Positions 1 through 1,031 of a stretch of DNA of 32,012 nucleotides are shown here, piece after piece (position 1 is the first letter of the stretch; each line of letters begins with the position of its first letter). The position numbers and the translations under genes are program-made. The DNA comes from Escherichia coli (lineage in GTDB: Bacteria; Pseudomonadota; Gammaproteobacteria; Enterobacterales; Enterobacteriaceae), in assembly GCF_003334385.1 (NCBI RefSeq), contig NZ_QOWN01000052.1; one strand, 5' to 3'. A model generated the notes under the pieces. That model was not told the origin of the DNA, made no database searches, and worked only from the letters and a program-made list of their open reading frames with translations.

Positions 1-75
1 TTATCGTGAGAGTAATTCATCGGCACGTTAAATCATATCAGGCGTAATACCACAACCCTTAAGTTAGCGCTTATG
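1..75 (-). mobile_element. insL: IS186-type insertion sequence, transposase-proximal end (terminal repeat 53..75; transposase start codon at 20..18 reading out of the window)
   Basis: Minus strand 20->1 reads ATG AAT TAC TCT CAC GAT AA = MNYSHD, which I recognise as the IS186 transposase N-terminus. 53..75 is the reverse complement of CATAAGCGCTAACTTAAGGGTTG, and the same 25 bp recurs inverted at 31934..31958. All three + frames have stops within 1..62. Confidence 0.8.
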
Positions 76-1031
76 GGGTAAACGTGGCATCGCTGCTGGG
101 CGATGGTCAACAGCGTAGCGAAGTCGAAATGCTCGGTTATCTGTTCTTCGTCGGTAATCGCAAAGCCACGCCGCTGCCGTATCAAAGCCAGCCGGATGAC
201 TCATGCGACTGGTATCGCCTGCGTCATGAAGAAGCGATGACGCCGGATGCGGTGGTGCGCCTGGCGGAAGCGGCATATGAAAAATATGGCTTCAACGATT
301 TCAAACTGAAGGGCGGTGTACTGGCCGGGGAAGAAGAGGCCGAGTCTATTGTGGCACTGGCGCAACGCTTCCCGCAGGCGCGTATTACGCTCGATCCTAA
401 CGGTGCCTGGTCGCTGAACGAAGCGATTAAAATCGGTAAATACCTGAAAGGTTCGCTGGCTTATGCAGAAGATCCGTGTGGTGCGGAGCAAGGTTTCTCC
501 GGGCGTGAAGTGATGGCAGAGTTCCGTCGCGCGACAGGTCTACCGACTGCAACCAATATGATCGCCACCGACTGGCGGCAAATGGGCCATACGCTCTCCC
601 TGCAATCCGTTGATATCCCGCTGGCGGATCCGCATTTCTGGACAATGCAAGGTTCGGTACGTGTGGCGCAAATGTGCCATGAATTTGGCCTGACCTGGGG
701 TTCACACTCTAACAACCACTTCGATATTTCCCTGGCGATGTTTACCCATGTTGCCGCCGCTGCACCGGGTAAAATTACTGCTATTGATACGCACTGGATT
801 TGGCAGGAAGGCAATCAGCGCCTGACCAAAGAACCGTTTGAGATCAAAGGCGGGCTGGTACAGGTGCCAGAAAAACCGGGGCTGGGTGTAGAAATCGATA
901 TGGATCAAGTGATGAAAGCCCATGAGCTGTATCAGAAACACGGGCTTGGCGCGCGTGACGATGCGATGGGAATGCAGTATCTGATTCCTGGCTGGACGTT
1001 CGATAACAAGCGCCCGTGCATGGTGCGTTAA
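76..1031 (+). pseudogene. gudD: Glucarate dehydratase (enolase superfamily), C-terminal ~318 codons only; 5' part cut off at the IS junction
   Basis: ORF 84..1031 translates to an enolase-superfamily C-terminal barrel domain (ends ...[10 protein letters not shown]). The frame stays open back to 75 (GVNVASLL) but hits an in-frame TAA at 60..62 inside the IS end. Full-length GudD is 446 aa from memory. Confidence 0.75.

Follow-up and report, generated by a model that had tools for sequence, protein, structure and literature searches.

The complete insertion sequence IS186 is 1,339 bp long, belongs to the IS4 family and encodes a 370-aa DDE transposase, and its canonical target is GGGG-N6/7-CCCC. 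The copies IS186A, IS186B and IS186C of Escherichia coli K-12 are the closest described relatives of the element analysed here. In IS186A, the duplicated target reads GG|GGATCACTCC|CC within the site GGGGATCACTCCCC, and in IS186C it reads GG|GGATAATTCC|CC within the site GGGGATAATTCCCC. Both duplications are 10 bp long, start two bases inside the G run and end two bases inside the C run (GG|GG-N6-CC|CC). Two of the K-12 insertions lie next to hok genes (hokC/IS186A and hokE/IS186B), with IS186 beginning 19 and 18 nt past the hok stop, respectively. The same element also inactivates a gene at a G/C-run target in the lon promoter::IS186 insertions of E. coli B and of evolved K-12 lines. These lon insertions go back to SaiSree et al. 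2001, as cited in PMC3861542, and a 12-bp IS186 target duplication at lon is on record (PMC3861542).

Two further alleles lie in the gudPXD operon. In strain RM10410 (NZ_CP042350.1), IS186 (L001 1737..3075) is inserted at the 3′ end of gudX, in the same operon and orientation as the insertion described below and ~460 bp upstream of it, with an 11-bp duplication (GTACCTGATCC). As a result gudX is only 432 codons long, and gudD is intact. The second allele, present in HVH 91, 1827-70, GCA_902708335.2 and a metagenome contig, is a one-base deletion in a run of five G residues within gudD (G5→G4).

Here we describe an IS186 end joined to the 3′ part of gudD in a 32,012-nt stretch of E. coli DNA (the window), which is the entire contig QOWN01000052.1 of the draft assembly GCA_003334385.1. 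The locus shares with the K-12 copies both end sequences, the 23-bp repeats, the start of InsL and a cut two bases inside a G run; it differs from them in its target, which is a putative half-site. At lon the element is the same, but there it has a full consensus site, a hot spot that is hit repeatedly; the insertion in gudD was seen in a single lineage and in 0 of 5,426 complete genomes.

Structure of the IS186–gudD junction

Positions 1..75 of the window are the transposase-proximal end of an IS186 element (IS4 family; NCBI name IS421) on the minus strand, cut by the start of the contig. The preliminary description, made from the letters alone, had recognized the N-terminus of the IS186 transposase, MNYSHD, on the minus strand at 20→1 and an IS terminal repeat at 53..75. 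Both readings hold: the N-terminus of K-12 InsL1 is MNYSHDNWSAILAH..., and 53..75 (minus strand) matches the 23-bp IS186 terminal inverted repeat, CATAAGCGCTAACTTAAGGGTTG, perfectly. The alignment of 1..75 to an IS186 reference, which had been proposed as a check, gave 75/75 identical positions with IS186A and IS186C of MG1655, and the copies in RM10410, EC416 and E. coli B likewise show no mismatch. Within this end, InsL codons 1–6 occupy 20→3 on the minus strand (bases 2..1 open codon 7) and the IS186 5′ leader occupies 21..52 on the same strand; the InsL start lies 55 nt from the element end, as in reference IS186. The sequence CATAAGCGCTAACTTAAGGGTTG has only two copies in the window, one at 53..75 (minus strand) and its inverted partner at 31936..31958 (plus strand), where 0 are expected (100 shuffles). 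The transposase gene of the left-hand element reads away from the 3′ part of gudD.

Identity to gudD of MG1655 begins at window position 75/76, which corresponds to gudD nt 385/386 and codon 129 of 446; the terminal G of IS186 coincides with a gudD G. This agrees with the earlier estimate that ~128 N-terminal codons of gudD are missing. The remaining 3′ fragment (76..1031, plus strand; nt 386–1341, codons 129–446 and the stop) is identical to gudD of MG1655 and EC416 and comprises the barrel domain only. The gudD frame contains stop codons at 45..47 and at 60..62 and then runs open from 63 as far as its own stop (1029..1031); a frame check bore out the claim that it opens back to 63 only, with the TAA at 60..62 lying inside the IS end. 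The program-made list of open reading frames gives a residual ORF of 315 aa with a GTG start (84..1031, plus strand). It aligns to residues 133–446 of the solved E. coli GudD (PDB 1EC7, E = 1e-220), and its product contains Pfam PF13378 (C-terminal barrel) only, the N-terminal PF02746 being absent. In the enolase superfamily, a barrel domain without the capping domain is inactive. The gudD remnant, with its native start and capping domain gone, is a gene fragment and would not be a functional member of this superfamily. In a consensus scan of the plus strand, no promoter-like site was present before 701, and no outward promoter was predicted that would read out of IS186 into the remnant of gudD. 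A consensus scan also marked a terminator-like hairpin with a 10-pair stem at 1044..1069, between the convergent genes gudD and barA. As gudD is the last gene in gudPXD and barA is convergent, a polar effect is not expected.

The intact gudD sequence at the site is CATCTGGGGGTAAACGTGGCATCG, with the five-G run in codons 128–129, and the uninterrupted site reads ...CTGGGGGTAAACGTGGCATCG.... In the window, the IS186 end abuts GGGTAAAC..., which places the cut two bases inside the G5 run (GG|GGGTAAAC...). On the G side, the gudD site (GG|GGGTAAACGT..) matches the geometry of the K-12 copies, and the C run that would lie 6–7 nt away is absent. The position of the cut relative to the G run would be that expected for a genuine cut by the transposase, and the gudD target appears to be a half-site. 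IS186 of RM10410 lies beside a C run only, which shows that half-sites are used by this element. From the geometry of the K-12 IS186 copies, together with the 11-bp and 12-bp duplications known at other sites, we predict that the right-hand copy of the target-site duplication is GGGTAAACGT, perhaps extending to GG (76..87). The homology between IS186 and gudD at the junction amounts to 4 nt only (GGGT).

The right-hand IS186 copy and the contig ends

A second IS186 copy enters the window at its other edge. Positions 31936..32012 (plus strand) are the transposase-distal end of this copy, which starts with the terminal repeat at 31936..31958 and is cut by the end of the contig; they are identical (77/77) to every IS186 copy compared. 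The element follows cysH and a hok/sok toxin-antitoxin locus (31620..31915, plus strand; Rfam RF01794 (sok), 113 bits), whose hok ORF (31763..31915) is annotated as a Hok/Gef family protein in EC416 and in E. coli B. The layout is the same as in hokC/IS186A and hokE/IS186B of K-12, with IS186 beginning 20 nt past the hok stop here. EC416 shares the junction between hok and IS186, and so do, with 100% identity, E. coli B, C, ATCC 8739, ML35 and many further strains, indicating that the right-hand copy is old and ancestral. Compared with the hok-IS186 pairs of K-12, it is without a flanking duplication, and it is unrelated to the event in gudD.

The hok-adjacent element and its surroundings can be seen in EC416 (L019 34976..36670) and in E. 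coli B (C3029, L004 2392..4025). In both, its flanks do not match (GGGGGTAAAACC|IS|GGGTTTTTCCCC) and there is no duplication. Furthermore, the element directly adjoins a CRISPR remnant and iap, and all cas genes are missing. This looks like the product of recombination between two IS186 insertions, in which the B, C and EC416 lineages would have lost their type I-E cas operon.

Both contig edges thus lie inside IS186, 1..75 at the left and 31936..32012 at the right, in the same (direct) orientation; 75 nt and 77 nt of the elements are visible, and the full elements extend beyond the contig. At the left, window positions 1..79 equal the right junction of the hok-adjacent IS186 of EC416 (75 nt of IS plus GGGT). 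At the right, positions 31934..32012 consist of CC plus 77 nt of IS, and the CC flank is shared with canonical copies, e.g. those of K-12. The overlap with other IS186 junctions is exactly 79 nt at each contig end, which points to a short-read de Bruijn assembler with k = 79 that collapsed the IS186 copies; this repeat collapse broke the contig at both edges. The sudden truncation at base 1 is thus an edge of the assembly. The IS186–gudD junction itself is genuine at the level of the reads and sits within a non-branching assembly path. In such a path, every 79-mer that crosses the junction (~75 distinct 79-mers) must exist in the reads, and the lack of a branch at gudD nt 385/386 means that an intact allele was not assembled.

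More generally, a gene that seems to be truncated at the first base of a window may only adjoin the edge of a contig broken by repeat collapse. The shared 79-nt ends reveal the k-mer of the assembly, and they show that the junction is real, yet that only one half of it is visible.

Strain background

Between 76 and 27,900, the window differs from MG1655 at three sites only. In the following 3.7 kb (27979..31707; cysJ, cysI and cysH) there are ~70 substitutions relative to K-12, and the sequence is identical to that of E. coli B, C and EC416. The edge of the cysJIH block appears to be a recombination boundary in an otherwise K-12-like region. After cysH, the window continues with the hok/sok locus and IS186, where K-12 has cas3. 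The nearest complete genome is that of the pig isolate EC416, with 3 SNPs over 31.9 kb (window 75..32012), an intact gudD and the same hok–IS186 junction. E. coli B as a source was rejected, as its identity is only ~99% in the part from gudD to queE. The preliminary description had taken the strain for an IS186-rearranged derivative of K-12. This has to be abandoned in view of hok/sok and IS186 at the position of cas3, the SNPs in cysJIH and the closer match to EC416; judged by its sequence, the strain is rather a natural phylogroup-A-like isolate, a relative of K-12 and not a derivative of it. EC416, 3 SNPs away, has an intact gudD and shares the hok–IS186 junction, so that of the two IS186 copies the one in gudD is the recent one. 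The gudD junction, which occurs in none of 5,426 complete RefSeq genomes, is recent and specific to this lineage.

Two other features of the window were observed. The mazF gene (7985..8320) carries a SNP at 8076 that results in MazF A31G, a rare variant found on 8 contigs in the whole public collection; an exact protein look-up of this variant led to contig QOWN01000052.1. An orphan CRISPR array lies at ~14670..15060 (TRF 14791..14942) between queE and ygcE, as in K-12; it has a 61-bp period and the type I-E repeat GTGTTCCCCGCGCCAGCGGGGATAAACCG.

Search for the junction in other genomes and assemblies

None of the 5,426 complete RefSeq E. coli genomes contains the gudD–IS186 junction. The sole match with 100% coverage, in RM10410, consisted of two separate pieces and was rejected, as IS186 of this strain is at a different site. 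Neither of the two junction sequences (the observed one and the predicted reciprocal one) had a match in the JGI metagenome contigs (0 matches).

For the reciprocal junction (the 5′ part of gudD joined to the distal end of IS186), we looked up the predicted products of the 5′ fragment for duplications of 7–14 bp, either complete or cut at an IS overhang of 28–33 nt as expected in k = 31 assemblies. Among these products, only that of the 12-bp duplication (P0001, 133 aa, ...GVNVA) was present in a collection of 15 billion proteins. It was rejected as proof of the reciprocal junction: in every contig read, the sequence was intact gudD ending at nt 400/401. Thus, neither the protein look-ups nor the scans of JGI metagenomes found the reciprocal junction. 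Pseudogenes get no protein in NCBI annotation, which accounts for this failure. In line with this, the gudD fragment is absent from the called genes of the source contig QOWN01000052.1. Among duplications of 7–14 bp, the look-ups are compatible with 12 bp alone, which is not proof, and the left copy of the duplication remains a prediction.

Many independent assemblies (Logan and ENA; L009–L018 and L035–L044) break at gudD nt 400 or 401. These breaks are most simply explained by a common synonymous polymorphism at codon 134, which would create a bubble where samples are mixed. For a break at nt 400, coexistence of the intact allele with an IS186-interrupted allele carrying a 12-bp duplication would be a fitting explanation as well. 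One of the Logan contigs (L031) begins at 1..30 with a Nextera/Tn5 mosaic-end adapter (…AGATGTGTATAAGAGACAG) fused to gudD, an untrimmed adapter in a public assembly.

In the literature collection searched, no paper names IS186 together with gudD and none cites the assembly accession. The insertion site is not previously recorded in the collections searched; the element and its behaviour have long been known.

Origin of the junction

How did the IS186 end become joined to gudD? The preliminary description had held that gudD is insertionally interrupted. The fusion of the IS186 end to gudD stands as described; interruption is the most likely cause of it. We consider it likely that IS186 transposed into gudD as a simple insertion in a natural E. 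coli isolate. The element would have inserted at the G5 run in codons 128–129, with a staggered cut two bases inside the run. The 5′ half of gudD would then lie in a different contig and adjoin the opposite end of the element, with a duplication of 10–12 bp. The reciprocal join would connect gudD nt ~395–397 to CATAAGCGCTAAC..., i.e. it would read ...CATCTGGGGGTAAACGT(GG) and then CATAAGCGCTAACTTAAGGGTTGAACC. Counting against a simple insertion are the reciprocal junction, which the look-ups did not find, the absence of both junction sequences from the JGI contigs and the complete genomes, the missing C run and the mismatched flanks of the right-hand IS186 copy.

An alternative is that the junction arose by an IS186-associated deletion or rearrangement, in which the 5′ part of gudD (perhaps with gudX, gudP and more) was lost or moved. 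One route would be recombination between an insertion in gudD and a directly oriented IS186 farther upstream; a single hybrid element that lacks a target duplication would remain. The other IS186 on the contig is such a hybrid (GGGGGTAAAACC|IS|GGGTTTTTCCCC); in EC416 and E. coli B, no cas operon is left between hok and the CRISPR remnant. Its mismatched flanks indicate that IS186-associated deletions do occur in this lineage. That a contig with the reciprocal junction was not found in the look-ups would also be expected after a deletion, but it is explained by a pseudogene fragment that is left unannotated. Moreover, a deletion needs two events where one is enough, and EC416 has no IS186 in the 2.7 kb upstream of gudD (gudP and gudX), so we regard this origin as unlikely.

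We also weighed an assembly chimera or a minority variant, with gudD intact in the true genome. In favour of this reading, the junction falls in the outermost 79 nt of a draft contig and occurs in none of the 5,426 complete genomes. However, the end of a de Bruijn contig requires real reads for every 79-mer across the junction, and the 4-nt homology (GGGT) is too short for a false join. Had an intact allele been present at appreciable depth, the path would branch, and the contig would then start at nt 385/386 of gudD and not 75 nt inside the IS. In addition, an identical 32,012-nt contig is recorded for two samples, the lineage marker MazF A31G is present on 8 contigs, and the position of the cut within the G run fits genuine IS186 insertions. 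Taken with these points, an artefact is very improbable.

Finally, the 31.9-kb segment between the direct IS186 copies could be a mobile or amplified unit (composite-transposon-like, tandemly amplified or an excised circle) whose two insertions are not independent, as both contig ends enter IS186 in one orientation, which in an assembly graph looks no different from a loop, but this is hardly credible: the segment is core chromosome in native order (eno, pyrG and relA), collinear with EC416 and MG1655; the right-hand IS186 is ancestral and fixed in many strains while the left one is new; and the 79-nt overlap at the left edge requires that this genome has a second right-end junction (GGGT..., towards the CRISPR), which is what a normal chromosome has. 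Of the features that define a composite transposon, the segment has two flanking direct IS186 copies, and neither a non-native location nor a common target duplication was found.

Predicted consequences for D-glucarate catabolism

A simple insertion of IS186 would split the capping domain of GudD (codons 1 to ~132) from the catalytic barrel (129–446), and no functional D-glucarate dehydratase would be made. From what is known of gudPXD/gar and of the enolase superfamily, we predict that the strain fails to grow on D-glucarate but still uses galactarate. The probable inability of the isolate to use D-glucarate is a trait of relevance to studies of gut colonisation. Loss of D-glucarate use is exploited deliberately in glucarate-producing strains.

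In itself, gudD::IS186 is an ordinary strain-specific knockout that matters little beyond the annotation of this strain. The main value of the analysis lies in the corrected context: the window is a whole draft contig with IS186 at both ends, it comes from a strain other than K-12, and half of the insertion lies outside it.

Other alleles at the same G run

The G5→G4 allele affects the same G run and leaves the same 315-aa ORF as the junction described here. It differs in being a one-base deletion and not an IS, and it belongs to a separate lineage whose members share 2 SNPs relative to MG1655/EC416. The deletion splits gudD into ORFs of 129 aa and 315 aa (L005–L008, ~9990..10001; codons 128–130). 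We considered a recurrent frameshift at the G run and rejected it: the carriers are 0–1 SNP apart, indicating one lineage and a single inherited event. That this lineage and the present isolate share the G run is a curiosity and not evidence of selection. A broader proposal would be that the G5 run, struck by IS186 in this lineage and by a one-base deletion in another, with IS186 in gudX of a third strain, is a recurrent point of inactivation, that some phylogroup-A lineages of gut or livestock are under selection to lose glucarate catabolism, and that the IS186-bracketed 31.9-kb core segment (relA, mazEF, eno, pyrG and cysJIH) can be amplified by recombination; we hold this to be quite doubtful speculation.

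An exact look-up of the 315-aa ORF returned 216 contigs (310 index blocks). These carriers were rejected as IS186 insertions, as the long contigs that were read have the G5→G4 frameshift and no IS. The corresponding look-up of a 300-aa product from an alternative start returned unrelated partial genes at contig ends and point mutants.
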